A stretch of DNA of 64,000 nt, from NCBI GenBank assembly GCA_014191035.1, contig BJGX01000002.1, positions 18,813 through 82,812 on the forward strand. Direction: 5' to 3'. The position numbers and the translations under genes are program-made. Origin of the DNA: Candidatus Saccharimonadota bacterium. GTDB lineage: Bacteria; Patescibacteriota; Saccharimonadia; CAILAD01; BJGX01. This document shows positions 2,136 through 64,000 of this stretch, in pieces; within the stretch, counting starts at the first letter, position 1; the number at the start of each line of letters is the position of its first letter. Under the pieces are notes generated by a model. It worked only from the letters and a program-made list of their open reading frames with translations, had not been told where the DNA came from and ran no database searches.

Positions 2136-2156
2136 ACATAAATAAATTAGGGCTAA

Positions 2157-2187
2157 CTTCGCTGTAAATGCAGCGAAGATAGTTTTT
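2157..2187 (+). terminator. Rho-independent terminator: CTTCGCTG-taaatg-CAGCGAAG hairpin followed by a T-run.
   Basis: 8-bp perfect stem followed by AGTTTTT. Confidence 0.5.
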
Positions 2188-2267
2188 AACCAGGATGTAT
2201 TAATCTGGCGACGCCCGTCGTCAGTCAGTGCACCCTCACATCAACCGGGAGGTTGAAATGCCAAACA

Positions 2268-2935: not shown

Positions 2936-3105
2936 GTCGTTTAAAAGGGGCATGTCAACCTCATAAAAAACTGACCGTAATTCTCAGGGGAAGTTCCTGG
3001 GGGCTGTTGATCGATAAGCCGTCACTATCGATTGGGTACACATGTGCTAGCCCGCAATCGCGAAATAGCACACCTTATCCCAACCTGGGAGAGGAGGTGA
3101 GCTGA

Positions 3106-4086: not shown

Positions 4087-4223
4087 GGTGAGGCTATTAC
4101 CTCGCTTGGCCTGGGGGAGTAAAATCCCCCGGGCACAAGCCCAAACTTCAAACTTGAACCTAGTAAGTAATTGCTTATTGAGTTCAGGGTTGCAGCCCTG
4201 CTAAAAGCTAATGCTTAAAAGTA

Positions 4224-17681: not shown

Positions 17682-17768
17682 TGGTGCCAAAGGTGGGAGT
17701 CGAACCCACACGCCCTTGCGAGCACACGATTTTGAGTCGTGCGTGTCTGCCAATTCCACCACTCTGGC
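17682..17768 (-). tRNA. tRNA-Leu, anticodon CAA, with long variable arm and encoded CCA.
   Basis: Reverse complement reads GCCAGAGTGGTGGAATTGGCAGACACGCACGACTCAAAATCGTG...GGGTTCGACTCCCACCTTTGGCACCA. Shows the T-loop GGTTCGACTCC, anticodon loop CTCAAAA and a type-II variable arm. Confidence 0.85.
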
Positions 17769-27622: not shown

Positions 27623-29038
27623 ATGAATAATCCTGTAAGAGTTAGATTTGCACCCAGCCCAACTGGGTTTTTACATATTGGCGGTATTAGAACCGCACTA
27701 TTTAATTATTTGTTTGCTAAAGCTAATAGTGGCCAGTTCATATTACGCCTTGAAGACACCGACAGAGAACGCTTTGTTGAAGAAGGGGTGGAACAGATTA
27801 TCAAATCTCTCGATTGGATTGGCCTGCATCCCGACGAAGGTGTTTGGTATGAGCAGAAGCCAGGCGAACATGGCCCATATATTCAATCGCAGAGGCTAAA
27901 CCACTATAAGGATTATGCCCAAAAGCTAATTGACAAAGGCTTGGCATATTATTCGCAAACCATACCCGAAAAGATAGAATCGCTTAAGGCAGAGGCAATC
28001 AATGAAAGGCGCCCATTTGTATATAAGCACTCTATGGAACCGACTGAAGCACCAGCTTCTACCAGAGGTATGCCTATCAGGCTTAAAGTGCCAGATGGCA
28101 AGACTATGTGGAAAGATGAGGTGCGTGGAGAATTCGAAAGTAATCATGAAATAATTGATGATTTTATTATTGTTAAAGCCGACGGCTTTCCGACCTATAA
28201 CTTCGCAAATGTGGTCGATGACCATCTTATGAATATAAGCCACGTTATTCGTGGTGATGAGTTTATCAGCAGTACAGCCAAGCATGCACTGCTTTATGAT
28301 TTATTAGAATTCGATCGCCCAGCCTGGGTGCACCTACCTTCTATTCTGGGGCCAGACGGCAAAAAGAAGCTAAGCAAGCGCGATGGTGATGTGAATGTTT
28401 TAGAATATAAAGCCAAAGGCTACCTTCCAGAAGCAATCTTGAATTTCTTGGCTCTTCTAGGATGGAACGATGGTACCACCCAAGAAGTTTTTAGCCCAGA
28501 AGAATTAATAAATAAGTTTAATATTGGTAGGGTACAAAAAAGCCCAGCAGTTTTTGATGTTAATCGCCTAGACTGGATGAACGGTGAATACATTCGAAAT
28601 AAACTCAGCGATGAAGAGCTTATTGAGCACATTAAGCCGTACCTGCCAGAAGCCTGGCTAGAAAACATGAATTATTTCAAAACCGTGCTAGCTCTAGACA
28701 AAGAACGAATCAAGCGTTTCGATGAAGCTAAGTACATAATGGAGATATTTTTTGAGACTCCAAATGTTGATAAGGCCTTGCTGTGTAAGAAAGACGACAT
28801 TGATACTATTAAATCCTGGGTATCGGAAGTGGTTAAGGCTATCGAGCCAATCGATTTTGAACACGACCAAGTGGAAAAGGCTCTTCGTGAACTTGCCGAA
28901 AAGCTAGATGTCCAATCAGGCCGACTATTCTATACTTTAAGAGTTGGTCTAACGGGCCGTACCGAGGCGCCAGGGCTTTTCGATATATTCGTAACGCTCG
29001 GCAAAGCCGAATCTTTAAAGCGTCTACAAAGTCTATAG
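27623..29038 (+). CDS. gltX: Glutamyl-tRNA synthetase.
   Basis: HIGG motif (PSPTGFLHIGGIRTALFN) and KMSKS-type motif (KLSKRDG). Confidence 0.9.
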   Translation: MNNPVRVRFAPSPTGFLHIGGIRTALFNYLFAKANSGQFILRLEDTDRERFVEEGVEQIIKSLDWIGLHPDEGVWYEQKPGEHGPYIQSQRLNHYKDYAQKLIDKGLAYYSQTIPEKIESLKAEAINERRPFVYKHSMEPTEAPASTRGMPIRLKVPDGKTMWKDEVRGEFESNHEIIDDFIIVKADGFPTYNFANVVDDHLMNISHVIRGDEFISSTAKHALLYDLLEFDRPAWVHLPSILGPDGKKKLSKRDGDVNVLEYKAKGYLPEAILNFLALLGWNDGTTQEVFSPEELINKFNIGRVQKSPAVFDVNRLDWMNGEYIRNKLSDEELIEHIKPYLPEAWLENMNYFKTVLALDKERIKRFDEAKYIMEIFFETPNVDKALLCKKDDIDTIKSWVSEVVKAIEPIDFEHDQVEKALRELAEKLDVQSGRLFYTLRVGLTGRTEAPGLFDIFVTLGKAESLKRLQSL

Positions 29039-35619: not shown

Positions 35620-36171
35620 ATGAAAGAACAGGTTGTATTGGTAGACGAAAATAATAAAAAACTTGGACTAGAAGACAAATACCAGGTTCACACCGGAGAA
35701 ACTCCCTTACATCGCGGGTTCTCGATGTTTATTTTTAACAGTAAGGGCGAGCTACTTCTGCAACAACGCTCGGATAAAAAGATAACCTGGCCTAGTGTTT
35801 GGAGTAATTCTGTGTGTGGGCACCCTGCTGATGGTGAATCGCCTCAAGAAGCTGCAAAAAGACGTGCAGAGTTTGAGTTAGGCATGCAAATTGAACTAGA
35901 CGAAATAAAACTCATTTTGCCAAATTACAGATATCGATATGAACACAAGGGCGTGGTGGAAAACGAAATATGCCCGGTTATGGTGGCATTTGGAGATTAC
36001 AAGTTTAATCCGAACCCTGATGAAGTCAAAGATGTCCGATTTGTAAAATGGGGTGACTTTTTAGAGGAAATATCAAAGGCAAACGAGTACTCCGAATGGT
36101 GCCAAGAAGAAGCCATGCTTTTAAATAGCAATTCAGAATTTAAGAAGCTATTTAGCGAACACACCAAATAG
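35620..36171 (+). CDS. idi: Isopentenyl-diphosphate delta-isomerase, type 1 (Nudix fold).
   Basis: TNSVCGHP active-site Cys motif (SNSVCGHP), Nudix-like E-rich box (EAAKRRAEFELG) and conserved W/E near the C-terminus. Confidence 0.85.
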   Translation: MKEQVVLVDENNKKLGLEDKYQVHTGETPLHRGFSMFIFNSKGELLLQQRSDKKITWPSVWSNSVCGHPADGESPQEAAKRRAEFELGMQIELDEIKLILPNYRYRYEHKGVVENEICPVMVAFGDYKFNPNPDEVKDVRFVKWGDFLEEISKANEYSEWCQEEAMLLNSNSEFKKLFSEHTK

Positions 36172-41672: not shown

Positions 41673-42053
41673 ATGCATATAAAAGATCTCGAATCAAAAG
41701 CTATGGAAAACACAACCTTTAGAACGGTACTTGCAACATCAAAACATACACAAGTAGTAGTCATGGATGTTAAGCCAGGAGAAGACATTGGTAAAGAAAT
41801 TCATCCTAATGAAGATCAGGTATTGTATCTTATTTCAGGCAGGGGAACGATCTATATGGACGGCAAGGAAATGGATTTTAATAAAGGCGATTGTGTTTTA
41901 GTTCCAGCTGGCACCGAGCACAACTTTACTACTATTGGTGACGAGTCTATGAAAATTATTACAACCTATAGTCCTCCTCATCATCCAGATGGTACCGTTC
42001 ATAAAACTAAGGTTGATGCTGAAGCTGCCGAATTAGAGCACGATGCACACTAA
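41673..42053 (+). CDS. Cupin-domain protein.
   Basis: Cupin motifs G(X)5HxH-like (GKEIHPNEDQVLYLISGRG) and a second motif (GDCVLVPAGTEHNF). AGGAGA SD. Confidence 0.7.
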   Translation: MHIKDLESKAMENTTFRTVLATSKHTQVVVMDVKPGEDIGKEIHPNEDQVLYLISGRGTIYMDGKEMDFNKGDCVLVPAGTEHNFTTIGDESMKIITTYSPPHHPDGTVHKTKVDAEAAELEHDAH

Positions 42054-43123
42054 GTCTGGCCTACTTTGCTCATCATTGATATTTTTCTGACAAACATCAA
42101 GAGCCATCCAAAAGTAATTATAAAGCCAATAAGCTCGAAGGCAGTTAGGCTAAAGTATCCTACAAAAGCAAATAATACATAACAAAAAGCAATTAGGGCT
42201 AAGGTTAAGTATGAGTTGGTTAGAAATGTTTTATCTATTTTGGGAAATATGAATCTTAAGCTCAGCACTATAACCCCAAAAATTATCAGCATAGAGTAGC
42301 CCAAAATATCATGAACCAAAGGCGCTCTGTCGTAGGGGAATAAACCCAAGCTGGCCATGTCTATCCCTAGTATTATAAAAAGTAAGCTTAGGATATTTAA
42401 ATTAACATCCTTCTTATTAAAAATATGTTTAGAGCGCTTTAAGTCATTAGTGAATTGAGTGCTCAGGGCTATAACCAAAAGGCCAGCCATAACAATGGTC
42501 ATATTAAAGCTTATTGAGGATATTCCATTACCCCAGCCCAGATAAGAGAAGTTAACCTGCCACCAATTAGGATTGCTATTTGTAAGCATAGACAAAATTA
42601 TTCCAGACACCATTACTATCGAAAAGAGCCTCGCAACTATAGCCGTGTTCATACCTTTAGCAAGTGGAATTAGTAGGTATATCAAGACACCAGAATAAAT
42701 CCCAACAAAGGCAGAGGACACAAAGGCATCTAAAGAAAGGTTCTTAAATGAATTATTAAGAACCGAAATTATTAAAAAGCTCACCATAGCTACTGTGATT
42801 GCTACAGCTACAGTCAATACAATGCAGTTATAAACTAGAACTCCGACTTTAAGTTTGATACCACGTTCTTTGAGCCCCATTAGGTAGAAAGGGGTAAAGG
42901 TGAACAAGCAGATTGCTGCTGCTGAAATAAGCATCATAAGACCAATCGAAACATCTCCAGATAGAGTGATTGCAGGCTTGCTCCTAAAAACAATGAAGCT
43001 AATTATAGTAAAAACAACAATGCTGGGAATTAGTAAAATCTCACCAGGATTTTGCGAGGCTTTAAATGACTTTTTAATTGAATGAAGCATATTATTTCTT
43101 TCTTTTGCTTTTTTGCTTTTCAA
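42050..43123 (-). CDS. Hypothetical polytopic membrane protein with about 10 TM helices.
   Basis: ORF with many hydrophobic helices. Family not recognised. Confidence 0.45.
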   Translation of the reverse strand: MKSKKAKERNNMLHSIKKSFKASQNPGEILLIPSIVVFTIISFIVFRSKPAITLSGDVSIGLMMLISAAAICLFTFTPFYLMGLKERGIKLKVGVLVYNCIVLTVAVAITVAMVSFLIISVLNNSFKNLSLDAFVSSAFVGIYSGVLIYLLIPLAKGMNTAIVARLFSIVMVSGIILSMLTNSNPNWWQVNFSYLGWGNGISSISFNMTIVMAGLLVIALSTQFTNDLKRSKHIFNKKDVNLNILSLLFIILGIDMASLGLFPYDRAPLVHDILGYSMLIIFGVIVLSLRFIFPKIDKTFLTNSYLTLALIAFCYVLFAFVGYFSLTAFELIGFIITFGWLLMFVRKISMMSKVGQT

Positions 43124-43415
43124 TTCTTCTTTGGGCTGCTGTACGAACTATTATATTCAATGATGCAGCAATTATTCCAACTCCGATTAGTACATAAAAA
43201 ATTGTAAATATTTTTGTAATATCGTTTGTTGGGTGGATATCGCCATATCCTACGGTAGTAATTGTGATAACCGAAAAGTACAAGGCATCGAGCCACTTTA
43301 ATGGCATGAAATAATGGTAAAAAATAGTTCCAGTCCCTATTACAGACAATGCAGTAAGTACAACCCATTTAAACTTAAGAGCTTCTGATTCTGATTTTCG
43401 ACTTTTCTTGTTCAT
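43092..43415 (-). CDS. Minimal 2-TM potassium channel (KcsA/Kch-like pore domain).
   Basis: K+ selectivity filter TTVGYGD flanked by two TM helices. Basic C-terminal tail. Confidence 0.8.
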   Translation of the reverse strand: MNKKSRKSESEALKFKWVVLTALSVIGTGTIFYHYFMPLKWLDALYFSVITITTVGYGDIHPTNDITKIFTIFYVLIGVGIIAASLNIIVRTAAQRRIEKQKSKRKK

Positions 43416-43486
43416 TTATTGTAATTTATACAGTATTTTTAATCTTTAAGCTAGCTTATAGAGCTTATGTAATATATTATACCACT

Positions 43487-43882
43487 ATGGAATATGGTTC
43501 TTGGTATTCGAGACAAAAAAAGCCCTCCTGGGCGCCACCAGAAATTGCCTTTGGCCAAGTATGGAGCATTTTGTATCCTATAATATTTGCTGTCAATATT
43601 TATGTTTTCTATCTTTTAAGCAAGGGTCAAATAAGCTGGCGGGTAGCATTGCCATTCTGGCTTAATTTGTTTTTTAATTTTGCTTTTTCACCACTTCAAT
43701 TTGTGCTGAGATCGCAGATTTTATCATCTATTGATATCGTTCTAGTCTTAATAACTACCATATGGTGCATTATTGCCATTTGGCCATATAGCAAATTAGC
43801 CTCTATTGCTTTCGTTCCGTATTTGATATGGGTTACGATTGCTTCAGTTTTACAAATTTCAATAACTGTACTTAATAGATAG
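43487..43882 (+). CDS. tspO: TspO/MBR-family (tryptophan-rich sensory protein) membrane protein, short form.
   Basis: Family N-terminal signature: KKPSWAPP, then 6 residues, FGQVWSILY, then W-rich helices. Confidence 0.7.
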   Translation: MEYGSWYSRQKKPSWAPPEIAFGQVWSILYPIIFAVNIYVFYLLSKGQISWRVALPFWLNLFFNFAFSPLQFVLRSQILSSIDIVLVLITTIWCIIAIWPYSKLASIAFVPYLIWVTIASVLQISITVLNR

Positions 43883-43938
43883 TTTATAGTTGTTATGCTA
43901 AAATTATAATTATTATTTAATGGGAACTAATTAAAGTT

Positions 43939-44712
43939 ATGCAAGCAAAAACCATACAAGGTAAAAAACTTCAGAAATTAAACCTCATTATGGGTTTAAT
44001 TCATCTTGCGCAGGCAGGCATACTGTTTGTTATTCTTAACTATTCATTTAAGATACCAATCCTAACTAGGTTTTTTGATACCACCCCTGGCGGTGGATTT
44101 ACGGTAATTACTGAGCGACTTTGGGATGTGCCAATTGCAGTTATAGCGCCTATTTTCTTACTTATAGCGGCATTCTTCCACCTTTTAATTGCATCACCGC
44201 TATATATTCGTCGCTACGAACAAAACATTAAAAATGGAATTAACCCAATACGCTGGTGGGAATACTCAATTAGCTCCTCTTTGATGCTAGTCGGTTTAAT
44301 GATGATGGCCGGACTCACCGAGCTTCCAAGTGTTGTGTTTGTCTTTACCCTTAACTGGATAATGAACATGATGGGCTTAATGATGGAGCGCTATAACCAG
44401 CTGACCGATAAAACAAAATGGTTCCCGTATAACATTGGGGTGGTTGCGGGCTTGGTTCCTTGGATAATTGGATTTATATACTTCTGGGTAAATACCAATA
44501 ACATTTCCGAATCTATTCCTTCTTGGGCCAAGATCGGCTTTATTATTACTTTCCTATTCTTTAATACCTTTGCTGTTAATATGTTCTTGCAGTATAAAAA
44601 GGTCGGGAAGTGGAAAAATTACGTTTATGGAGAGCGTGGTTACATTTGGCTAAGTTTGATTGCCAAGTCTGTACTAGCCTGGATAATCGTCTTGGGAACA
44701 CTAAATCAGTAG
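43939..44712 (+). CDS. Heliorhodopsin (7-TM retinal protein with inverted topology).
   Basis: Colinear match to the prototype heliorhodopsin 48C12 as recalled. TM1: GLIHLAQAGILFV. TM3: FHLLIASP..RRYE...NPIRWWEYSISSSLM, including the counter-ion Glu. TM5: GLVPWIIGFIYF. TM6: FLFFNTFAVNMFLQYKKVGKWKNY. TM7: GERGYIWLSLIAKSVLAW, with the Schiff-base Lys. Confidence 0.85.
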   Translation: MQAKTIQGKKLQKLNLIMGLIHLAQAGILFVILNYSFKIPILTRFFDTTPGGGFTVITERLWDVPIAVIAPIFLLIAAFFHLLIASPLYIRRYEQNIKNGINPIRWWEYSISSSLMLVGLMMMAGLTELPSVVFVFTLNWIMNMMGLMMERYNQLTDKTKWFPYNIGVVAGLVPWIIGFIYFWVNTNNISESIPSWAKIGFIITFLFFNTFAVNMFLQYKKVGKWKNYVYGERGYIWLSLIAKSVLAWIIVLGTLNQ

Positions 44713-44718
44713 GGGCTT

Positions 44719-45387
44719 ATGGGTACATCAGCTAATCTAGTTCAGGCAATCTTCATAACCCTCAATATTGTTGGCTTTGGATATTTAGCCTATAAATTCA
44801 TTTCTAGTAAAAGCTCAACAGCCAAAATATTTGGTTACGGAATGGCTCTTCTAGCTTTTGTAGAATTTTGTGTGCTGGGTGTAAATATGTTGTGGACTAT
44901 ACCTGTTTTAGATTTTAAATCCTTGCAGTATCTTTTCTATCTGTATGCAATACTAGTCTTATTTGCTACGTCTGCGGCCTCTCTTAAGCCAAGAACAAGG
45001 TACTACATTAATATATTTTTAGCTTTTGCAGCCATTTTAGTTTCTGGCCTATTCTTTTTAGAAAGGACTTTGAACAACGCAACAGCATACACAATAAATT
45101 ATTATCTGTCCTTTGATAATCCTGCTACCCTAAATATTTTCAGCCTGACTGTGGCATTGTCGCTTGGTATGGCAGCTCTGGTGGTAGCACAATATTTTAA
45201 AGATCGAAGCCTTAAATTGGCTTTAGAATTGGGCTATTTGATAGTAACTATATCTTTGGTAATTAGTCTGATTGTATTTAACGACACTATAAGATTAATC
45301 AGCAGTATTGCTCAGCTCGGTTCTCTTCTGGCCATGTCGTTATACATCTATAAAAACCCAGCAGAATTCCAAAAACTCAAAAGATAA
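44719..45387 (+). CDS. Uncharacterised 7-TM membrane protein, 5 nt downstream of the heliorhodopsin gene.
   Basis: Seven hydrophobic helices predicted by eye. No Lys in the last helix and no type-1 rhodopsin motifs. The ATG start follows the HeR stop almost immediately. Confidence 0.5.
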   Translation: MGTSANLVQAIFITLNIVGFGYLAYKFISSKSSTAKIFGYGMALLAFVEFCVLGVNMLWTIPVLDFKSLQYLFYLYAILVLFATSAASLKPRTRYYINIFLAFAAILVSGLFFLERTLNNATAYTINYYLSFDNPATLNIFSLTVALSLGMAALVVAQYFKDRSLKLALELGYLIVTISLVISLIVFNDTIRLISSIAQLGSLLAMSLYIYKNPAEFQKLKR

Positions 45388-45392
45388 GCGTA

Positions 45393-45421
45393 TTGACATT
45401 AATAGCTTAATAAAATAGTAT
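45393..45421 (+). promoter_or_regulatory. Sigma70-like promoter: TTGACA, 17 nt spacer, TAGTAT.
   Basis: Consensus -35 with correct spacing to a -10-like hexamer. About 30 nt upstream of the GTG start at 45451. Confidence 0.4.
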
Positions 45422-45449
45422 ATTACGGCCACAGAACAGACTGGAGAAT

Positions 45450-45461
45450 TGTGAGCTCACA
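45450..45461. promoter_or_regulatory. Perfect 12-bp palindrome TGTGAGCTCACA, lac-operator-like (AATTGTGAGC|TCACAGAAT), overlapping the GTG start codon.
   Basis: Exact dyad symmetry. Sits at about +22 to +33 relative to the putative transcription start. Confidence 0.3.
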
Positions 45462-46053
45462 GAATCTGAAGCTTGTGACGTACTTAAAAAATGAGCAGAA
45501 ATTGGCTGATAAGTATCTCGAAGATACTTCGGCTTTTTTGACCAATACTTATAACGTCAAATTCACGATGCGTGATCTGTTAGAGATTGCTTCATCACCT
45601 CATGAAATTGCAGCTCGACGACAGTTCAATTCCATCCTTGTTATGCGTGACGTCTATGTAGACTCCGCTGAAATTAACAAGCAAATCGAATTGATTGTAG
45701 GCTCATACAATAGCTATGCCACGCTAATGGGTTTTGCAAATTGCGTAGGTGATAAGATAGCTAAAATTGCCCACGATAGAGTACTAGCAGTTAAAGACGT
45801 ATGGCCAAAGGACGCTTTCGGCTCGCTTATGAGTTCGCTTCAAGTTTACTCGACTTCAAATATTGAATTCAGACAGAGTGTCAGAGCTGAAGCAAGTAAT
45901 AAGCTAAATTTTACCAATTCTCTAGGGGCATACATAACACTCACGCCAGCAGAGCGAATCTTGTCTAATGTGTCGGTCAGCCCGGTAGAAGAGCTTTGCT
46001 CCTGGATAGACCAAGCAGGTGTTACATTCGCCACTACTCTTTCTAGCAACTAA
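45451..46053 (+). CDS. Hypothetical protein. GTG start.
   Basis: ORF with a GGAGA SD 4 nt upstream. No motif recognised. Confidence 0.4.
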   Translation: MSSQNLKLVTYLKNEQKLADKYLEDTSAFLTNTYNVKFTMRDLLEIASSPHEIAARRQFNSILVMRDVYVDSAEINKQIELIVGSYNSYATLMGFANCVGDKIAKIAHDRVLAVKDVWPKDAFGSLMSSLQVYSTSNIEFRQSVRAEASNKLNFTNSLGAYITLTPAERILSNVSVSPVEELCSWIDQAGVTFATTLSSN

Positions 46054-46070
46054 ACTAAAGTATAAAGAGA

Positions 46071-46093
46071 GCCCGCCATTTAGGCGGGTTTTT
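46071..46093 (+). terminator. Rho-independent terminator: GCCCGCC-attt-AGGCGGG followed by TTTTT.
   Basis: 7-bp stem (6 G:C, 1 A:T) followed by a T-run. Confidence 0.7.
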
Positions 46094-46132
46094 ACTATTA
46101 AAAAATTATTATTTGAGTTATGCTTATTAGAT

Positions 46133-46786
46133 ATGGGGCCAAAAAAAATTCCAGGAAGTTACGATCATGAAATCAACAAAAGCTATATGTGGAGATGGTT
46201 GTTTGTCATTATAATATTGGTAGTTGCTGTCAGCCTGGGAGCCTTTATTTTATTAAGGCCAAAACAGCAAAGCACCAAAACCGGACAAGATTTAAATAAC
46301 AGCATTAGCTCTTATGAAAATCGTTATGTCGGTAAAAAGATAGAATATAATTTGGCCAACATACAAAACGACTGGAACAAGATCAGTGGTGAGGGCGGTT
46401 CTAACTACAAATTAGATGAGTCGTCTTGCACATCAAGTTTGCTTTCTTCAGATAATGTAAAAAGCTTAATTAATTCTGGTTCTACTCTAGCAAGTGCAAT
46501 CAACAAACAGCTTGAAGAAACAAAAGATTCATCACCTGATAAAACCATCATTATAGGTAATACCTACAGTGCTAATCTATCTTCCAACAAAGGAGATCTG
46601 GAGTTCATGATAAAAGATGCTGATTATAAGGCCGCAGATGGCACGTCTCACAAAATAAAAATTTATGGTCAGTGGATCGGCGACTACCAGCTTTTTATTA
46701 GGCAAGAGTGCACAGTAGGTGATTTCAATAATTCAAAAGAAAAGCTCGAATCATTTATTGATAGATTGGCGATAATAGTAAACTAG
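46133..46786 (+). CDS. Membrane-anchored or secreted hypothetical protein.
   Basis: The ATG at 46133 follows the terminator. The ORF track's longer 46019 start would read through that terminator. N-terminal TM helix (WLFVIIILVVAVSLGAFILL). Confidence 0.5.
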   Translation: MGPKKIPGSYDHEINKSYMWRWLFVIIILVVAVSLGAFILLRPKQQSTKTGQDLNNSISSYENRYVGKKIEYNLANIQNDWNKISGEGGSNYKLDESSCTSSLLSSDNVKSLINSGSTLASAINKQLEETKDSSPDKTIIIGNTYSANLSSNKGDLEFMIKDADYKAADGTSHKIKIYGQWIGDYQLFIRQECTVGDFNNSKEKLESFIDRLAIIVN

Positions 46787-47202
46787 TTTAGTTTGCCCAG
46801 CCGATACTCTGATAGTAAAGCGTCTGCATTTGAAGAGTGCCTACCTTCGCCGCCCTTATTATTATAGGCAGAGGTGGCATCCTTTCCGCAGTAAGTCAGA
46901 ATTAAGTCAGCGCCACCTGGGTGTTCATCGAGATAGCTTGTAACATCATAAACATTGCCCCTAATTGCTACCCAGCAATCACTAGATTTATTATGTTTAG
47001 ATAGTTCGGTAGTTGATATTGTCTTTTCATCAATTGCTACTTCTTCTTCAGCTGGCTGTTGCTGTGTGTTTTGATCTACTTTTTCGTCTATTTTTTCTTC
47101 CACAGCATTTTCCTTATTCTGGCTATCGATAAATCCCCAAACAAACATTCCGCTCATAAGCACAGCAACAATAATCAAAACAACTGCAACAACCTTTTTC
47201 AT
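46783..47202 (-). CDS. Membrane-anchored cytochrome b5-like haem-binding domain protein.
   Basis: N-terminal TM helix. b5 fold signature (HNKSSDCWVAIRGNVYDVTSYLDEHPGGADLIL...GKDATSAY). Confidence 0.75.
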   Translation of the reverse strand: MKKVVAVVLIIVAVLMSGMFVWGFIDSQNKENAVEEKIDEKVDQNTQQQPAEEEVAIDEKTISTTELSKHNKSSDCWVAIRGNVYDVTSYLDEHPGGADLILTYCGKDATSAYNNKGGEGRHSSNADALLSEYRLGKLN

Positions 47203-48512
47203 GACAAGTTAAACTCCTCGGTATTTATATTCTTATTTTTTACTCTCTTTTGCTTAAGCTGTCTTTTGATAGCCTTCATCATGGCCGATGGTCCACAAAT
47301 CATAAAGTTTGCATCCTCTAAGTTTTTGCTCTTTTCAAAGATTATATCGGCGCTTAAAAAACCATCTTTGTCTTCGAAATAAGTTATCAGATTAAAATTA
47401 CTCTTCTGCTTATCTAACGCTTCAAGCTCGGCCAGGTAAAAAGCATCTTGCTTGGTTTTTAAGGCATAATATAAATCAATTTGCTGAGTTTCGTCTGCAG
47501 ATTTAGCCATTGACATAAATGGAGTTACACCTATACCGCCAGCTATCCAAATCTGCCTACTATTTTTTACAACCTTGTTAGAAAATGTACCGTATGGACC
47601 ATCTATCTTAAAGGTTGTGCCTTTTTCAGCACCCTCTAGGGCAGCTGTAAAATCACCCAGCGCCTTTATACCAAACTTTAGTTTACTTTCGTCTGGTGAA
47701 GAACTCATCGAGAAAGGATGGGATTCACCTAAAAGGCCTTTGCTGTCTTGTTTTATAAAAGCATACTGGCCCGGCACAAAATTTAATTTATCGCCGATTG
47801 GACTTAAAACAATTTCATAAATACTTCCTGATTTACGAATGTCGTCGAGTTTATATTCATAGAATTTAGCAAAATTGCCGTGGAATATTGAACGATATAC
47901 GTAAACTATTAAAGCCATCGCTATTAACACGGCAAAGTATATTTGTAAGCTCAAAATCCCATTACCTCTAAAGCCTAGGTTACTACCGCCGACAAAGACA
48001 GCATGAATCGCACCTACAAACAGTATCAAACCAAGTAGCCGCTGAGCCAAAATGAAAAACTTATAAGAAACCTTGATATACAAGGTGACTATAATTGCCA
48101 GTACCATTCCAAATAAGGCAATGCTTCCCAGGGCCCTGAATGGCGATAACAGGTTGGGTTTTAAAAATTCAAAGGCCGAATTAGGAGAAATTAAAAAATA
48201 TCGAATAGTTAAAAATAGGGGGTGCAACAATAGCAGTATAAAAGCTATCGATCCGATGTTGTGATGCGCTCGGTAGGTGTTATCTAGGCCATGAAACATT
48301 CTATTATATATTTTGAATCTGGCACTGAGTATTACGGCCCAGGCAAAAAGAGCCATACCAGCAAGACCCGCTAGCTTACCTAGACTCTGGAATATGTTTT
48401 GGGCGCCATCCCAATCTAGCGGCATCGCAATTAGCCACAGAATCACGGGGGTAAGAGCAATGATAACCGTAAGATATCCGCCCGGATTAAAGTATTTTCT
48501 TCGACTATTCAT
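47199..48512 (-). CDS. NOX/FRE-family flavocytochrome: ferric-reductase 6-TM domain plus FAD- and NAD(P)H-binding domains.
   Basis: TM His pair spaced 14 residues (AHHNIG...LLLHP). FAD motif HPFSMSS. NAD(P)H motif AGGIGVTPF. C-terminal CGP motif. Overlaps the b5 gene by 4 nt. Confidence 0.8.
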   Translation of the reverse strand: MNSRRKYFNPGGYLTVIIALTPVILWLIAMPLDWDGAQNIFQSLGKLAGLAGMALFAWAVILSARFKIYNRMFHGLDNTYRAHHNIGSIAFILLLLHPLFLTIRYFLISPNSAFEFLKPNLLSPFRALGSIALFGMVLAIIVTLYIKVSYKFFILAQRLLGLILFVGAIHAVFVGGSNLGFRGNGILSLQIYFAVLIAMALIVYVYRSIFHGNFAKFYEYKLDDIRKSGSIYEIVLSPIGDKLNFVPGQYAFIKQDSKGLLGESHPFSMSSSPDESKLKFGIKALGDFTAALEGAEKGTTFKIDGPYGTFSNKVVKNSRQIWIAGGIGVTPFMSMAKSADETQQIDLYYALKTKQDAFYLAELEALDKQKSNFNLITYFEDKDGFLSADIIFEKSKNLEDANFMICGPSAMMKAIKRQLKQKRVKNKNINTEEFNLS

Positions 48513-49876: not shown

Positions 49877-50725
49877 ATGAAGCTTAGGAAACCAGTAAAT
49901 ATTATTCGTGGCAGAGAGGGGACCGATGGTGCCGGCGTAAAGCTGATCCGTTTGTTTTCGCACGATAACACAAATGATTTTGACCCCTTTTTAATGATGG
50001 ATGCATTCGACAGTGTCGATCCAGAAGATTACAATAAGGGCTTTCCATGGCATCCCCACAGGGGTATTGAAACTATAACCTACTTAATTGATGGTGCCAT
50101 AGAACACCAAGACAGCCTTGGAAATTTCGGTGCCATTAATGCTGGTGATGCGCAGTGGATGACGGCAGGGTCAGGCATTATTCATAATGAAATGCCAGTT
50201 GAGTCCAAGAGAATGCGCGGATTTCAGTTGTGGCTGAATCTACCCAAACAACACAAAATGACCAGCCCATCTTATAATGAGATTAAAGAACATAGCATTC
50301 CAGTAGTTAAAGAGGGCAAAAACACTATTAGGATTATTTCAGGCAACTACGGTAATAAAATGGGTGCGTTTGATCCAAAATATGTAAATCCATTATTTTT
50401 GGATATATCGCTTTCAAAAAATTCCAAATTTGAGCTGTCCACACCAAGCTCAGACACATTGTTTGTATATATTTTAGAAGGGGACGTTTCATTTTCCGAT
50501 TCAGAAGATGCTATAGCACATAAAAATGTTGTATTTTTTGGCAAAGGAGACACGCTTAGGGCAAATTCTGTAACTACAAATGCAAGGATTTTGCTTTTTT
50601 CCGCTAAACCAATAAAAGAGCCGGTTGCTTGGGCTGGACCAATAGTTATGAACACAGAAGCTGAACTAGAACTAGCTTTTTCACAGCTAAGGCGCGGAAC
50701 TTTTGTTCAAGATAATCATAAATAA
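49877..50725 (+). CDS. Pirin-family protein (bicupin).
   Basis: HPHRGIETITY motif and the second-cupin GSGIIHNE region. Confidence 0.85.
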   Translation: MKLRKPVNIIRGREGTDGAGVKLIRLFSHDNTNDFDPFLMMDAFDSVDPEDYNKGFPWHPHRGIETITYLIDGAIEHQDSLGNFGAINAGDAQWMTAGSGIIHNEMPVESKRMRGFQLWLNLPKQHKMTSPSYNEIKEHSIPVVKEGKNTIRIISGNYGNKMGAFDPKYVNPLFLDISLSKNSKFELSTPSSDTLFVYILEGDVSFSDSEDAIAHKNVVFFGKGDTLRANSVTTNARILLFSAKPIKEPVAWAGPIVMNTEAELELAFSQLRRGTFVQDNHK

Positions 50726-50757: not shown

Positions 50758-51333
50758 ATGAAAAAAGAAATAGAATCTCTAAGAAAGGAGGTGAATAGGC
50801 TAAAAAAGCTAGCCTATCGTGATCACCTTACAGGCCTTCTAAACCGAAGAGGTTTTGAAGATTCTATTAATTTGGCCATAGATCAATACAATAGCAGTGA
50901 TAAAAAATTAACCCCACGCAGGGGTTTTATTGTTAATAGCGTAAGTTTAATCGTTATCGATATTGATAGGTTCAAAAAATTAAATGATAAATACGGCCAT
51001 CCTGAGGGAGATAAAATATTAAAACATCTTTCAAAGCACATTACTAGCCAAGTTCGATCAAATGATCTTGTTGGGCGCTGGGGTGGAGAAGAATTGGTTG
51101 TGGGCCTAATTGGAGCCGACTTAGAATCTGCTTATGAATTGGCTGAAAATGCAAGAATTGAACTAAAAAAATCAGGCTTTGAGCCGGTTTATACTTTTAG
51201 CGCCGGCGTTGCTGGTGTAAATAATCAAATCAATACCTTTCAAAAGCTTTATGAGTGTGCCGACGAGGCTCTTTACAAAGCCAAAACGTCTGGCCGAGAC
51301 AGGGTTGAAAAGTGTAAAATTAAAAGTAATTAA
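50758..51333 (+). CDS. GGDEF-domain diguanylate cyclase (GGEEL variant) with N-terminal coiled-coil.
   Basis: DHLTGLLNRRGF, IDIDRFKKLND and the RWGGEELVV active site. Confidence 0.8.
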   Translation: MKKEIESLRKEVNRLKKLAYRDHLTGLLNRRGFEDSINLAIDQYNSSDKKLTPRRGFIVNSVSLIVIDIDRFKKLNDKYGHPEGDKILKHLSKHITSQVRSNDLVGRWGGEELVVGLIGADLESAYELAENARIELKKSGFEPVYTFSAGVAGVNNQINTFQKLYECADEALYKAKTSGRDRVEKCKIKSN

Positions 51334-51346
51334 TTAGAGGGTAGAA

Positions 51347-51985
51347 ATGAAAGAACAAGTATCAAAGTTGAAGCTAGAGAGATATTCTAAAAATCGCGTT
51401 GAAAACTTAAGTGATGGAGTCTTTGGCTTCGCCATGACATTATTAGTGCTTAATATTGTAATCCCTGAAAGCAGTATAATTTCCAGCAATTCTCAGCTAT
51501 GGCAAGCAATTTCGGGCCAAGGAAGAGCTTTTCTGAGTTTTGCTATTGCGTTTTTTATACTGGCTTCTATGTGGAGCCTGCATGTCAGGCAATTTGAAAA
51601 CCTTCAAGAAATTGATAGGCGATTTGTATTTATAAATTCAATTAGGCTTTTTATGGCAATTCTTATTGCATTTAGTACTGGCATTGCTAGCAGTTACGAA
51701 AAGCTCGAGCTGGCTAGGATGATATTACCAATTAATCTTTTGTTGCTTGCGATTATCGGCACAATACAATGGCATTATGCTGCTTATAGTAAGCCACCTC
51801 TTTTAGAAGGAATTACCAGTGAAGAAAAAAACATGCACAAAATCAGAGCAATCATATTTATTATATTCTCACTATTCACCGTTGTGGCTTCATATTTTGT
51901 CGGAGAAATAGCTTTTGCCATATTTATACTTATGCCAATTATAGTAAGGTTAACTGGCGTTAAAAAGACAAAGTCCTCGGTTTAG
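51347..51985 (+). CDS. DUF1211 / TMEM175-like membrane protein (putative K+ channel family).
   Basis: Signature RVENLSDGVFGFAMTLLVLNI (family consensus RxxxFSDGVFAIAxTLLV). Confidence 0.65.
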   Translation: MKEQVSKLKLERYSKNRVENLSDGVFGFAMTLLVLNIVIPESSIISSNSQLWQAISGQGRAFLSFAIAFFILASMWSLHVRQFENLQEIDRRFVFINSIRLFMAILIAFSTGIASSYEKLELARMILPINLLLLAIIGTIQWHYAAYSKPPLLEGITSEEKNMHKIRAIIFIIFSLFTVVASYFVGEIAFAIFILMPIIVRLTGVKKTKSSV

Positions 51986-59871: not shown

Positions 59872-62800
59872 ATGTCAGCCACAAACAGCCCTGAAGAAAA
59901 AAACATGGAGAGAAGAATAAAAACTACAAAAGTAGTCTACCCACAACTTTATTCTTATGTCTTGCCAGACTTAACAGCAAATGAAGGTTCTCAAAAAATA
60001 GGCTACACCGAACGTAAAGATGTAGATGAGCGAATTCGCGAACAGACGCAAACGGCAGCAATGAAGTTGCGTTACGACAAACTCTGGAGTGCGCCTTCTT
60101 TTTTTACGAATTCAAATACAGATTTTACAGATAAGATTTTCCATCAGTTTCTGGTTAGAAATGGTGTAGAAAAAAGAGATGATCTGGGAACGGAATGGTT
60201 TTATTTCAACGGCACACCGGAAAAATCAAAACAACTTTTTGATTCATTCAGAAACGAAGGTTATGCCGCTCTCCAAAATAATAATGGTAAAAAACCTTAC
60301 ACCTTAAGAGAAGAACAAGAAGCAGCGGTAAGTCAGGCTATAGAGTATTTTAACAACTATACAAATGGAGAATTCCTGTGGAATGCCAAGCCTAGATTTG
60401 GCAAGACGCTTGCGACTTATGACCTTGCCAAAAGACTAGGGGCTCAAAAGGTGCTTATAGTTACCAATAGGCCAGCAATTGCCAACTCGTGGTTTGATGA
60501 CTTTGAAAATTACATCGAGGATTTTTATTTTATATCCGAAACATCATCACTAGCAGAGAGGGGCACCTTAACCAGAGCGCAGTATGTTGATTCGGACGTT
60601 GAAAAACCACAAATAACTTTCTTGTCACTTCAAGACCTAAAAGGCTCCAGGTTTTTTGGAGGAAAGCATGATAAGTTGAAATGGATTGCTGACCTCGAAT
60701 GGGACTTGCTTGTAATTGATGAGGCGCATGAAGGGGTCGATACTGGTCGCACAGATGCAGCATTCGATGTCGTGAAGCGCAGCCATACTTTGCATCTTTC
60801 AGGTACACCATTCAAGGCACTAGCAAATAATAAATTTCCAAAGGAAGCCATATTTAACTGGACATATTTGGATGAGCAAAAAATAAAGAAATTAGAAATA
60901 TCAGAAAATGAAACTGGTGACCATACTGACCTCCCAGATTTAAAACTTTTCACTTACAGAATATCGCAAATGATAGCTGAACAAGTTAATGAAGGAATAG
61001 AACTAGAAAACGAGTCACGAGATTACGCCTTTGATTTAAATGAATTTTTTGCGACTGAGAACCAAAAATTTGTTCGAGAACAAGACGTTAGACAATTCCT
61101 GAAAAACCTCAGTGCGAATAAAAAATATCCATTTTCTACACCCGAACTTCGAGACGAACTACGCCATACGTTTTGGTACGTAGGCAATCGTGTAGATTCA
61201 GTTAAGGCCCTTGAAAAGTTACTAGCTGATGATGATGTTTTCAAAGATTATAAGGTTGTAGTGGCAGCCGGTGACGGCAAATCATTTGATGAGGAGGAAA
61301 CTGACTTCGGAGCCAATGAAAAGTCATTTGACAAAGTCAAAAAAGCCATTAAAAATCACCCAAAAACAATTACATTATCATGTGGCCAACTAACCACTGG
61401 TGTGACCATAAAAGAATGGAGCGCAGTATTAATGCTTACAGACATTAAATCGACTCCAGTCTATATGCAGGCGGCATTTAGGGCTCAAAATCCTTACAAG
61501 TACTATGAAGACGGCATGCTCAAAGTTAAAGAGTCAGCCTATCTTTTTGATTTCGCACCAATACGTGTATTGGAGATGTATGATGAATTTGCAAATGGAT
61601 TAAACCCTGATGCTACCAATGGCCTGATCACAGAGGAGGACCGCAAAGGTAACATCCGAGAACTGTTAAATTATTTCCCAGTTATATCTGAAGACACTGA
61701 AGGACAAATGGTCGAGCTAGATGCCGAAAAAGTATTGACCTTCCCGAATGCTCTCGCCGCTACCGAAATTGTCCAAGCACGCTTCATGACCAATTTGCTA
61801 TTCAATGACAACATTAAAGGGGTCTTTCATTTTCCTAAAGAAGTCGAAGATATACTCGATAAAATGCCTGTTGAAAAGAACAAGCGTGTTGAAGTGTCCA
61901 AGCAATCACTTGACCTAGAAGATGCACGAAAGGTTGAGCAAGATAAACAAGCTAAAATTAGCGAGAATACTGGCGTCATATTGGGCGAAAAGATTTATCG
62001 AGCCAATATTGATAGAGTTGTAGACAATGTTTTAGATCAAGCAACGCCTGAAGAAACCATAGACATGCTGCCTGAAAAGGTAGAAGCCCTGGTAGAGGCG
62101 CCTATAGCCAAACTAAAAGAACAATATAAGCTAACTGCCACCGAAACAGATGAATTACGCAAAGAAACAGCCGAAAAGATCAAGATTGTTGTATCAGAAT
62201 TTGAAAATAGTGATGATAAAGATCCAGATACTTTAAAACAAAGCCTTGCTAATGTTATTGAACACGATTTGGTGCAGGCAAAAGTGGAGCAACAAGAAAC
62301 CAAAGCCGTAGAAACAGTACAAAAATCTAAAGAAGAAGAGGTGCGCGAACACCTGCGTGCCTTTACTCGCACAATTCCAATGTTCGTAATGGCAAATTCT
62401 TCACGTGATACGATTACTATAGACAACTTTGACGAGCAAATAAGCGATGAAGATTTTATCGACTTAACAAATATTACCAAGGAAGAATTCCATAAGCTCC
62501 GTGACGGTTTTGATTATTCTGATGATAACGGTGAGCGCCAGCACTTTGATGGTGTGTTTCACAAGTACAAGTTCAACGCATCTATAGCAGAATTTGTGTC
62601 TGAAAAACAAAAACGAGCTAACTATTTCGAAACAGATGATGATATTTTTGAATTAATTCCTAATCAAAAGAATAATCAAATATTTACACCCCGCAAAGTT
62701 GTGAAGATGATGATTGATGGGCTCGAGAAAGAACAGCCGGAGCTATTTAAGCGAACCGACAGTACATTTATTGACTTATATATGAAATCAGGCATGTATG

Positions 62801-64000
62801 TAACAGAAATAGTTAAAAAGCTGTTTGCTGGCACTCGGCATAATTACAGCACCGACAAAGAATGCCTCAAGCATATACTAGAGAACCAAGTGTATGGCTT
62901 GGCGCCTACTGGTGTGCTGCATGGCATCACTAAAAGTTATATACTAGGATTTGATGTAGATCATAATATAAGTAGTAGAAACTTTGTGCAACACGACTTA
63001 CTGCCAGAGGCCAAAGCCGGCACTGCAGCACAAAAAATCGCAGATTTATTTAACAATGGAGATATTAATATGAAATTTGATGCAGTTGTAGGTAATCCGC
63101 CTTACCAGGTGGCGCTATCACAAAATAAAATGTCACGTAGCATTTATCCGGACTTTGTGCGAGCCGCGAAAAAAATTTCGGAGACTTTTTCGTTTGTGAT
63201 GCCTGCTCGCTGGATGAGTGGCGAGAATGGGCCTTATCGAGAAACACAAGGATTTGTAGACGAAATGCTAGATGGCAGTCATTTAAAATCATTTACATTA
63301 TTCCCAGATTCTAGTGAGCTATTCAAGGGCGTTGACATAAAAGGAGGTGTTTGTTATTTCGTATGGGACAAAAATTATAGCAAGGATTTAGTGGATTATA
63401 CACTGAGCGAACGAGGTAAAGACGTAACCGCAATTGTTCCATTCAAAATTAGTGACAATATCATCGTGCGTTTTCCGCAACTTACAAATATAGTTCAAAA
63501 AATTTCAAGGAATGCACCTAGTGATTCCATGAAGACACTGGTATCTTCATGGAATCCGTTCGGATTCATTTCAGATTTGTTCGTAAAAAATAATGAGGGC
63601 GTTCGTAGGATTAGCGAAAAGAAAATGGATACTGATGACTATAAGGTTATTGGCCTTTTAAAAGGAAGGCGTGTATACCGCTATATACCGAATGATGAAC
63701 TTAAGAAGAATAGAATTGGCGCTAAGTCATGGAAAGTATTTGTTCCAAGAGCAAATGGTAGTGGAGTATTTGGGGAGGTTTTTAGTACACCGATGCTCGG
63801 TGTACCGATGCTCGTATGCACTGATACTTTTTTACAAGTAGGTGAGTTCGACAATGAATATGAGGCAAATAGCGTATTGACGTATGTAAAAACAAAGTTC
63901 TTCAGGGCAATGGTAGGGGTGAAAAAAACAGCAGTATTTAACTATAAAGATGCTTTTACTTTCGTACCTCAACAGAATTGGACGAATAAATCCGACATAG
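59872..64000 (+). CDS. Single-polypeptide restriction-modification-like enzyme (Type ISP-like): PD-(D/E)xK nuclease, SF2 DEAH ATPase, gamma-class N6-adenine MTase (NPPY). The 3' end lies beyond the window.
   Basis: Frame is open from the ATG at 59872 to the window end. N-terminal VLPD-x14-ERK. Helicase motifs I (KPRFGKT), II (VIDEAHEG), III (LSGTPF), V (GQLTTGV) and VI (QAAFRAQN). MTase motif I-like DLYMKSGMYV and motif IV VVGNPPYQ. Confidence 0.75.
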   Translation, partial: MSATNSPEEKNMERRIKTTKVVYPQLYSYVLPDLTANEGSQKIGYTERKDVDERIREQTQTAAMKLRYDKLWSAPSFFTNSNTDFTDKIFHQFLVRNGVEKRDDLGTEWFYFNGTPEKSKQLFDSFRNEGYAALQNNNGKKPYTLREEQEAAVSQAIEYFNNYTNGEFLWNAKPRFGKTLATYDLAKRLGAQKVLIVTNRPAIANSWFDDFENYIEDFYFISETSSLAERGTLTRAQYVDSDVEKPQITFLSLQDLKGSRFFGGKHDKLKWIADLEWDLLVIDEAHEGVDTGRTDAAFDVVKRSHTLHLSGTPFKALANNKFPKEAIFNWTYLDEQKIKKLEISENETGDHTDLPDLKLFTYRISQMIAEQVNEGIELENESRDYAFDLNEFFATENQKFVREQDVRQFLKNLSANKKYPFSTPELRDELRHTFWYVGNRVDSVKALEKLLADDDVFKDYKVVVAAGDGKSFDEEETDFGANEKSFDKVKKAIKNHPKTITLSCGQLTTGVTIKEWSAVLMLTDIKSTPVYMQAAFRAQNPYKYYEDGMLKVKESAYLFDFAPIRVLEMYDEFANGLNPDATNGLITEEDRKGNIRELLNYFPVISEDTEGQMVELDAEKVLTFPNALAATEIVQARFMTNLLFNDNIKGVFHFPKEVEDILDKMPVEKNKRVEVSKQSLDLEDARKVEQDKQAKISENTGVILGEKIYRANIDRVVDNVLDQATPEETIDMLPEKVEALVEAPIAKLKEQYKLTATETDELRKETAEKIKIVVSEFENSDDKDPDTLKQSLANVIEHDLVQAKVEQQETKAVETVQKSKEEEVREHLRAFTRTIPMFVMANSSRDTITIDNFDEQISDEDFIDLTNITKEEFHKLRDGFDYSDDNGERQHFDGVFHKYKFNASIAEFVSEKQKRANYFETDDDIFELIPNQKNNQIFTPRKVVKMMIDGLEKEQPELFKRTDSTFIDLYMKSGMYVTEIVKKLFAGTRHNYSTDKECLKHILENQVYGLAPTGVLHGITKSYILGFDVDHNISSRNFVQHDLLPEAKAGTAAQKIADLFNNGDINMKFDAVVGNPPYQVALSQNKMSRSIYPDFVRAAKKISETFSFVMPARWMSGENGPYRETQGFVDEMLDGSHLKSFTLFPDSSELFKGVDIKGGVCYFVWDKNYSKDLVDYTLSERGKDVTAIVPFKISDNIIVRFPQLTNIVQKISRNAPSDSMKTLVSSWNPFGFISDLFVKNNEGVRRISEKKMDTDDYKVIGLLKGRRVYRYIPNDELKKNRIGAKSWKVFVPRANGSGVFGEVFSTPMLGVPMLVCTDTFLQVGEFDNEYEANSVLTYVKTKFFRAMVGVKKTAVFNYKDAFTFVPQQNWTNKSDI

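Follow-up and report, generated by a model that had tools for sequence, protein, structure and literature searches.

A heliorhodopsin gene of freshwater Saccharibacteria, its conserved neighbors and its kinship with heliorhodopsins of Actinomycetota

A heliorhodopsin gene and its two closest neighbors

We examined a 64-kb stretch of DNA from contig BJGX01000002.1 (the whole stretch is called the window below), and in particular the open reading frame (ORF) at positions 43939-44712, which encodes a heliorhodopsin (HeR). On the same strand, this gene is preceded by a gene for a short protein of the TspO family and followed by a gene for a protein with seven transmembrane (TM) segments, which we call TM222:

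43487-43882, + strand: TspO/MBR-family protein, 131 amino acids (aa); ends 56 nt before the HeR gene
43939-44712, + strand: heliorhodopsin (HeR), 257 aa, ATG to TAG; matches in Pfam, NCBIfam and the PDB
44719-45387, + strand: TM222, orphan 7-TM membrane protein, 222 aa; starts 6 nt past the HeR stop

That the ORF at 43939-44712 encodes a heliorhodopsin is practically certain. It matches Pfam PF18761 over all 242 positions of the profile (1-242), with E = 7.4e-82 and a score of 274.8 bits where the cut-off is 26.7, and it matches the NCBIfam equivalog for HeR, NF038020, in the same way (289.9 bits, cut-off 100; positions 1-244 of 244). With phmmer, residues 6-256 align to residues 13-257 of TaHeR from a Thermoplasmatales archaeon (PDB:6is6, chain A) with short gaps only (E = 1.5e-60), and in this alignment the seven TM segments are colinear with those of the solved heliorhodopsin structures. 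The structure of 48C12 (PDB:6su3) is matched end to end (E = 6.5e-46), and there are further structure matches to 6uh3, 9ljj, and 9vfc. The identification is far beyond a chance match.

The original prediction for this locus, made from the DNA letters, had described a heliorhodopsin of 257 aa that is colinear with the family across seven helices, with a glutamate in TM3 (in RWWEYSISSS) and a lysine in TM7 (in WLSLIAKSVLAW). It had also proposed a search with PF18761 and an alignment to 48C12 and TaHeR. All of this held up: the coordinates, strand, and start and stop codons are the same, the segments NPIRWWEYSISSSLM and YIWLSLIAKSVLAWII of the translation contain both motifs, the whole profile is covered, 6is6 and 6su3 are matched end to end, and the Lys/Glu pair is in place.

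We then aligned the protein to 48C12 and TaHeR with MAFFT and examined its functional residues. Lys243 corresponds to the Schiff-base lysine of 48C12 (Lys241) and Glu108 to the counterion in TM3 (Glu107). The other residues that we compared are also shared: Ser239 (Ser237 in 48C12), His22 (His23), His81 (His80), Trp106 (Trp105), and Tyr109 (Tyr108). All seven of these residues are invariant across 10 members of the HeR clade. The retinal-binding motif, S239-L-I-A-K243, fits the SxxxK pattern in TM7 that is a criterion for heliorhodopsins (type-1 rhodopsins have DxxxK; PMC9166423), and SLIAK is among the commonest retinal-binding motifs in that study, which suggested a role in oxidative stress (PMC9166423). 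Overall, the HeR is intact, with the complete signature of the heliorhodopsin fold and all of the residues that are required for binding retinal as a protonated Schiff base.

TaHeR (6is6/7u55) and 48C12 (6su3/6uh3) thus share with the window HeR the family, the Schiff-base lysine, the glutamate, the SxxxK motif, and the pair of histidines. At one position, the window HeR has Met215 where 48C12 has Gln213, and in this it is like TaHeR. The HeRs of Thermoplasmatales differ in being only 42-48% identical to the window HeR, in grouping with the outgroup, and in having another gene context. The N-terminal tail of the window HeR, MQAKTIQGKKLQKLN, has four lysines and zero acidic residues, which fits the positive-inside rule. 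An inverted topology, with the N-terminus in the cytoplasm, would be inherited by homology to TaHeR, which is indirect. Compared to the ortholog from a related genome (locus L002, introduced below), the nonsynonymous divergence (dN) is 0.033 while synonymous sites are saturated, so the gene is under strong purifying selection.

The bearer of the heliorhodopsin

The organism that carries this HeR is a freshwater member of Candidatus Saccharibacteria (Saccharimonadia, within the Patescibacteria or candidate phyla radiation, CPR). One protein of the window is identical to a protein with that name:

27623-29035: glutamyl-tRNA synthetase GltX, identical to GDX62629.1 (Candidatus Saccharibacteria bacterium)

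Among the species representatives of GTDB, the closest loci (L002 and L003) are from metagenome-assembled genomes (MAGs) of 'Candidatus Saccharimonadia' from Lake Mendota. Their HeRs are 95-96% identical to the window HeR, and the synteny of these loci with the window extends from SfLAP/TGT through the ferric-reductase gene. A 4-mer classifier (leave-one-out accuracy 42 of 42) assigns the window to CPR with P = 0.98. The G+C content (GC) is 0.40 for the window and 0.39 for the HeR gene.

The window also encodes a sortase, a surface protein with an LPQTG motif, PcsB/CHAP, an MprF-type TM domain, a TagA/WecG glycosyltransferase, MurA, MreB, and a class I ribonucleotide reductase. This gene content fits a small-genome monoderm. 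Such a bacterium had been proposed at the outset, and the sortase, the LPQTG protein, the MprF-type domain, and TagA/WecG bear this out.

A conserved gene neighborhood

The genes around the HeR form a block that is kept in six independently assembled Saccharimonadia loci (L002, L003, L082/83, L084, and L085/86), whose HeRs are 72-96% identical. In another locus (L001), the HeR sequence is that of the window itself, and the genes on either side are the same too. The upstream part of the block comprises a short-chain dehydrogenase/reductase, a NUDIX-domain ORF at the position of idi (isopentenyl-diphosphate isomerase), ABC and ABC-2 genes, SfLAP, and TGT, and then a cupin. The core comprises a K+ channel (- strand), TspO (+), HeR (+), and the 7-TM protein of about 220 aa (+). 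The downstream part comprises a cytochrome b5 (-) and a flavocytochrome that resembles NOX and ferric reductases (-).

The HeR/TM222 junction is tight. In the window it reads TAG GGGCTT ATG, and the distance from the HeR stop to the 7-TM start is -4 to +10 nt in L002, L082, L084, and L085. The close spacing is kept across five independent loci, even where the 7-TM protein is only 51% identical or is recognized at E = 1e-26. A very distant 7-TM homolog, P0132 (E = 2e-12 to the family profile), begins 11 nt after a HeR of the window clade. (L092 also encodes a distant TM222 homolog, where the upstream DNA is too short to show any preceding HeR.) TM222 is probably co-transcribed and translationally coupled with HeR.

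TM222 has no match to a Pfam or NCBIfam family, and its homologs are rare: 5.8 billion proteins yielded six of them, and 1.84 billion representatives yielded 13 clusters. Where HeR has 76-95% identity, TM222 has 51-69%, so its evolution is much the faster of the two, and yet it retains the invariant segment NNATAYTINYYLSFDNPAT. We also considered whether TM222 might be a degenerate second rhodopsin. This is unsupported: the hhalign probability is 0.2%, there is no lysine in the middle of TM7, and the structure matches are only those of a generic 7-TM bundle. By sequence homology, by profile homology, and by the lack of that lysine, TM222 falls outside the microbial rhodopsins and the heliorhodopsins.

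The upstream neighbor matches the TspO family of Pfam, PF03073 (E = 2.2e-27; 96 bits, gathering threshold 24), at profile positions 21-143 of 145. Its score to the NCBIfam TspO model (66 bits, positions 25-148 of 152) is under the cut-off of 180. The protein starts at the loop-1 motif KPSWAPP, and the ORF cannot be extended upstream. The missing segment is presumably TM1 of the five-helix TspO architecture. We therefore describe the product of 43487-43882 as a TspO-family protein without TM1 and not as a demonstrated TspO equivalog: it has neither the complete five-helix architecture nor an equivalog-level match. The short form is kept in the orthologs (122-131 aa), with dN/dS = 0.024 relative to L002, and TspO lies upstream of HeR in L001-L003, L084, and L085/86. 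In the literature that we searched, there was no mention of a heliorhodopsin with TspO or of TspO with Saccharibacteria, nor was any TspO described as being this short, given that our searching on TspO was narrow.

The other features near the HeR are:

42050-43123, - strand: TM357, conserved multi-pass membrane protein, 357 aa; no Pfam or NCBIfam match; not Blh-like
43092-43415, - strand: protein of the 2-TM K+-channel type, 107 aa, oriented away from TspO and HeR; Pfam Ion_trans_2, E = 7.5e-21
43883-43910, + strand: TTTATA-16-TATAAT, a promoter-like site between TspO and HeR that matches the consensus at 10 of 12 positions
46783-47202, - strand: cytochrome b5-domain protein; Pfam Cyt-b5, E = 1.1e-25
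47199-48512, - strand: ferric-reductase/NOX-like flavocytochrome (Ferric_reduct, FAD_binding_8, and NAD_binding_1); 4-nt overlap with the cytochrome b5 gene

The K+-channel gene is present at that position in every syntenic Saccharimonadia locus. TM357 is 73-97% identical across L002, L003, L082, and L084 and is absent from L085; it is more strongly conserved than TM222, and its ortholog in L084 has a weak DUF998 mark. The cytochrome b5/flavocytochrome pair lies downstream of HeR in L002, L082, L084, and L085, and every syntenic Saccharimonadia locus retains it. Such a redox module is unusual in a bacterium inferred to be most probably fermentative (PMC9166423). When we scanned 42900-46200 for promoters and terminators, the counts were no better than those in shuffled sequences, and the promoter-like site before HeR is weak.

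Beside the HeRs of Actinomycetota or of other CPR bacteria, we did not find TspO, TM222, the K+ channel, or TM357 (by tblastn with E ≤ 1e-5 and a scan of the downstream ORFs). Because these neighbors are confined to the sub-lineage of the window, the gene cluster was assembled within one sub-lineage of Saccharimonadia.

Kinship with the heliorhodopsins of Actinomycetota

Among the GTDB species representatives, the next most similar HeRs after those of L002 and L003 are from Actinomycetota: the HeRs of Aquiluna, other Microbacteriaceae, Pontimonas, and Planktophila/acI are 60-67% identical to the window HeR. About 20 other HeRs from Saccharibacteria, Dojkabacteria, and Patescibacteria are just 41-46% identical. 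In neighbor-joining trees of 58 sequences (with Kimura distances), the window type and the intermediates form a monophyletic group together with the Actinomycetota in 200 of 200 bootstraps. The window group lies outside the smallest clade that contains all of the Actinomycetota, again in 200 of 200 bootstraps. If the tree is rooted with the outgroup, the Actinomycetota are one derived clade that is nested among Saccharibacteria lineages. We also compared the window to 317 kb of DNA from Actinomycetota. HeR was 67% identical to its match there, and the other window proteins with a match (a SecA fragment, an FtsE-like ATPase, and an ABC ATPase) were 32-37% identical.

The HeRs that are known from Actinomycetota (Aquiluna/Luna-1, Microbacteriaceae, Pontimonas, and Planktophila/acI; PMC12422013) have the same length and the same set of motifs as the window HeR. 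They differ in phylum, in the GC of the gene (0.42-0.51 vs. 0.39), and in having neither a TspO nor a 7-TM neighbor. As for the CPR, Chiriac 2022 screened 1326 genomes and found 80 heliorhodopsins in Saccharimonadia (PMC9166423). These HeRs have the organism group, the habitat, and the SLIAK motif in common with the window HeR (PMC9166423), but the CPR-type HeRs in our sample are only 41-46% identical to it and lie outside the window clade.

That sample includes a second HeR from the MAGs of L002 and L003 (L053 in JBIIIT010000012.1 and L074 in JBIIKB010000055.1), which is 43% identical to the window HeR. The L053 and L074 proteins group with the ordinary, Patescibacteria-type HeRs of CPR, outside the window clade. 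The two MAGs nearest to the window probably hold two HeR paralogs of different origin.

Metagenomic sequences that are 64-83% identical to the window HeR come from Saccharibacteria wherever this could be checked. (P0004, P0008, and P0014 are in syntenic loci, and P0061 and P0109 bear Saccharibacteria names at NCBI.) One locus, L089 (P0067; JGI 3300060879 Ga0589626_0000079), encodes at 6001-6780 a HeR that is 80-82% identical to those of Aquiluna, while LigA from L089 is 75-79% identical to those of Ca. Saccharibacteria/Microsaccharimonas. This indicates that a HeR gene passed between Saccharibacteria and Microbacteriaceae fairly recently.

Judging from these sequences, the clade of the window HeR is common only to freshwater Saccharimonadia and to freshwater and marine Actinomycetota. 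Since the clade is found in both phyla and is apart from the ordinary HeRs of CPR, this gene lineage has crossed the boundary between the symbiont's phylum and that of its presumed host at least once. At least one transfer of HeR between phyla is hard to avoid. The topology favors a transfer from symbiont to host, which is not secure.

Could the Actinomycetota-like HeR be an artifact of assembly or binning, with a fragment of actinobacterial DNA in a Saccharibacteria contig? All of the nearest named relatives outside of Saccharibacteria are from Actinomycetota, as this would predict. However, HeR is in the middle of the window, and the composition is even: its GC is 0.39, compared to 0.40 for the window and 0.50-0.54 for the Aquiluna loci. 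Also, Saccharibacteria genes flank HeR, and at least six other datasets yielded the same syntenic block in independent assemblies. The chance of such an artifact is next to nil.

Source of the retinal

We then asked where the chromophore might come from. The window has one gene for isoprenoid metabolism:

35620-36171, + strand: idi, type-1 isopentenyl-diphosphate isomerase; NCBIfam NF002995, 206 bits (cut-off 127); TIGR02150, 140.9 bits (cut-off 105.8)

In L082, L084, and L085, the ORF at the position of idi in the syntenic block is equal in size (183-184 aa) and has a NUDIX domain. Idi is a general isoprenoid enzyme and is no evidence of carotenoid synthesis. We searched about 66 non-overlapping ORFs of the window (each with at least 90 aa) against Pfam and found no phytoene synthase, phytoene desaturase, lycopene cyclase, Blh/BCD, or RPE65-type oxygenase; the window is a small fraction of the genome, so missing retinal genes there prove little alone. 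Both the idi gene and the lack of genes for carotenoids or retinal in the window had been reported in the original prediction, and we arrive at the same gene and the same lack.

Blh genes are often found beside rhodopsin genes, and Blh-type dioxygenases use four histidines. TM357 and TM222 were considered as hidden Blh-like enzymes and rejected: TM357 has a single invariant histidine, TM222 lacks any, and no family match was obtained for either protein.

The case for scavenging rests on published surveys of whole genomes from rhodopsin-bearing Saccharibacteria (PMC9296517). In those surveys, rhodopsin-bearing freshwater Saccharibacteria had no blh (Jaffe 2022, PMC9296517), and in those same lakes, blh was almost wholly actinobacterial (PMC9296517). 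The type-1 rhodopsins of Saccharibacteria take up external retinal within 30 s (PMC9296517). Co-occurring Actinobacteria of the Nanopelagicales are reported to have crtE/B/I/Y and blh, and Jaffe 2022 proposed that actinobacterial hosts supply the retinal (PMC9296517). As PMC9296517 relays from Shihoya 2019, the apoprotein of heliorhodopsin has an opening through which retinal from outside is rapidly taken up, and TaHeR, whose source organism lacks a retinal pathway, captures external retinal.

There is a parallel with those type-1 rhodopsins, or SacRs, which are from the same lineage and the same lakes and use external all-trans-retinal, with Actinobacteria as its proposed source (PMC9296517). 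SacRs differ in that they belong to another rhodopsin family and have the opposite orientation in the membrane. They carry a DTS motif and pump protons outward, while the window HeR presumably transports no ions.

From the literature and the window together, we consider it likely that the retinal of this HeR is exogenous. It had been suggested from the DNA alone that scavenging of the chromophore would be notable. The suggestion agrees with the literature, but it was already in print (PMC9166423, PMC9296517). A heliorhodopsin in Saccharibacteria that lack retinal synthesis is published, and there is little new there.

Alternatively, the organism could make its own retinal by a route that was not recognized, such as a non-homologous enzyme that cleaves beta-carotene from the host, or with genes elsewhere in its genome. 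We think that this is quite improbable. Neither crt nor blh was found in the window, and the conserved membrane neighbors of HeR have 0 or 1 invariant histidine, as compared to four in Blh. Nor was blh found in the surveyed genomes of rhodopsin-bearing Saccharibacteria (PMC9296517). Some weight on the other side comes from the 64-kb scope, from about 20 ORFs of the window that have no family assignment, and from Nakajima 2020, which by its title (as given in the reference list of PMC12422013) describes a bacterium that builds functional rhodopsins with no known retinal-biosynthesis gene.

What the heliorhodopsin might do

If the window HeR acts like other members of its family, then it would bind all-trans-retinal, absorb green light (near 550 nm), cycle slowly with a long-lived photointermediate, and transport no ions. 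By analogy, it would sense light and modulate a partner protein with which it is in direct contact. HeRs have been shown to regulate the products of their own operons, namely glutamine synthetase (AbHeR; PMC9529153), photolyase (TfHeR; PMC9769723), and an ABC transporter (OcHeR and OmrDE; PMC11109279). We propose that the same principle, in which HeR uses light to modulate the product of a co-transcribed neighbor, may apply here. The neighbor of the window HeR (the orphan 7-TM protein, with a TspO upstream of HeR) is outside the ten partner groups of PMC11109279. The partner model draws on these precedents of HeRs that bind the products of their operons and on the tight and conserved coupling of HeR with TM222. 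The leading candidate for the partner would be TM222, followed by the TspO without TM1; the redox neighbors are candidates as well. That TM222 is the specific partner is a tentative idea, and we would sooner doubt it than rely on it.

As for the chromophore, the genome would be unable to make retinal, and the HeR would depend on an external supply, for which the membranes of Actinomycetota hosts are the most plausible source.

A different output is conceivable. HeR might belong to an island of genes for light or oxidative stress and might tune the redox and photoprotective functions around it (TspO, the cytochrome b5 and flavocytochrome pair, pirin, cupin, and GGDEF) rather than TM222 specifically. 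The genes in question that were not listed above are:

49877-50725: pirin, just upstream of the genes for GGDEF and the TMEM175-type channel
within 50758-51985: stand-alone GGDEF diguanylate cyclase, 191 aa, adjoining a TMEM175-type K+ channel

TspO lies immediately upstream of HeR, and in other bacteria TspO binds porphyrins and is involved in their photodegradation. The cytochrome b5 and flavocytochrome genes, pirin, and GGDEF are within 7 kb of HeR and are kept in syntenic loci. A role for HeRs in oxidative stress in monoderms and CPR bacteria was proposed previously (Bulzu 2021, PMC8612252; Chiriac 2022, PMC9166423). On the other hand, only the gene for TM222 appears to be translationally coupled to HeR. 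The redox genes are on the opposite strand or are behind unrelated ORFs, the TspO lacks TM1 and is lost in L082/83, and synteny in a small genome need not imply a functional link. This alternative, which we find somewhat unlikely, is compatible with the sensor model because it differs only in the output. (As an aside, the arrangement of pirin, GGDEF, and the TMEM175-type channel is kept in L082/83, and signaling by cyclic di-GMP is unexpected in so reduced a genome.)

Another alternative is that HeR transports ions, as a light-gated proton channel or a pump, perhaps together with the neighboring K+ channel. The gene for the 2-TM K+ channel is indeed a conserved divergent neighbor, and some viral HeRs conduct protons. 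But the window HeR matches the equivalog of prokaryotic HeRs and the structures of TaHeR and 48C12, and it has the same set of E/H/H/S/K residues as those two proteins, which do not transport ions. (In 2018, Pushkarev and colleagues reportedly detected no ion transport for those two.) We consider ion transport to be very improbable.

Taken as a whole, the reading that we prefer is a functional HeR that serves as a retinal-dependent sensor with a membrane partner, that uses scavenged retinal, and that belongs to a clade common with Actinomycetota. We judge it to be probable. Several points weigh against it. First, L087-L090 and all of the Actinomycetota loci of the window HeR clade have other neighbors. 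Since the 7-TM neighbor is confined to one Saccharimonadia sub-lineage, it is not the general partner of HeR. Second, TspO is absent from L082/83. Third, the trees were built by neighbor joining from a sample that is centered on the query, so the root and the direction of transfer are insecure. Fourth, L087, L088, and L090 were assigned to CPR by the 4-mer classifier alone. Fifth, for the absence of retinal synthesis we depend on published surveys of related genomes.

A bolder version is that HeR, the coupled TM222, and the TspO without TM1 form an undescribed light-sensing module, and that the HeR lineage moved between episymbionts and their actinobacterial hosts. This combination is unlikely to hold in full. 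If it is true, then the HeR clade would be a genetic trace of an otherwise unproven partnership of Saccharibacteria and Actinomycetota in lakes.

We see three leads that are modestly novel and for which we found no mention in the literature that we searched: the clade in common with Actinomycetota, the pattern of two paralogs, and the TspO-HeR-7TM cluster. (In the text of Chiriac 2022, PMC9166423, that we consulted, there is no mention of kinship with Actinomycetota or of a TspO or 7-TM neighbor of HeR.) The conserved and coupled 7-TM neighbor is a lead on what heliorhodopsins do. The HeR clade that is common only with Aquiluna, acI, and other freshwater or marine Actinomycetota, and that includes the pair of L089 and Aquiluna (80-82% identity), is independent genetic evidence for intimate contact between the phyla. 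It complements the hypothesis about retinal supply and bears on the hosts of freshwater Saccharibacteria.

Other features of the window

Two further features are:

17682-17768: tRNA-Leu, the sole find of the Rfam/tRNA scan; unrelated to the HeR locus
17847-19040: sortase

There is also a GC-rich island at 2000-4100 (and 4346-5698), with GC of 0.56 compared to the mean of 0.40 for the window. Two ORFs in the island match no family: 2228-2935 has a coiled coil and two TM segments, and 3106-4086 has a signal peptide and a proline-rich tail. They are followed, at 4346-5698, by a surface protein of 450 aa. This protein is a sortase substrate: at its end, LPQTG is followed by a TM segment and a basic tail. 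The island may be foreign DNA.

At the other end of the window, the ORF at 59872-64000 runs off the end and encodes at least 1376 aa, with a ResIII/DEAD helicase domain fused to an Eco57I-type methyltransferase. The product resembles fused restriction-modification enzymes, similar to type ISP or IIG. L082 and L083 have an N6_Mtase/Eco57I gene at the corresponding position.

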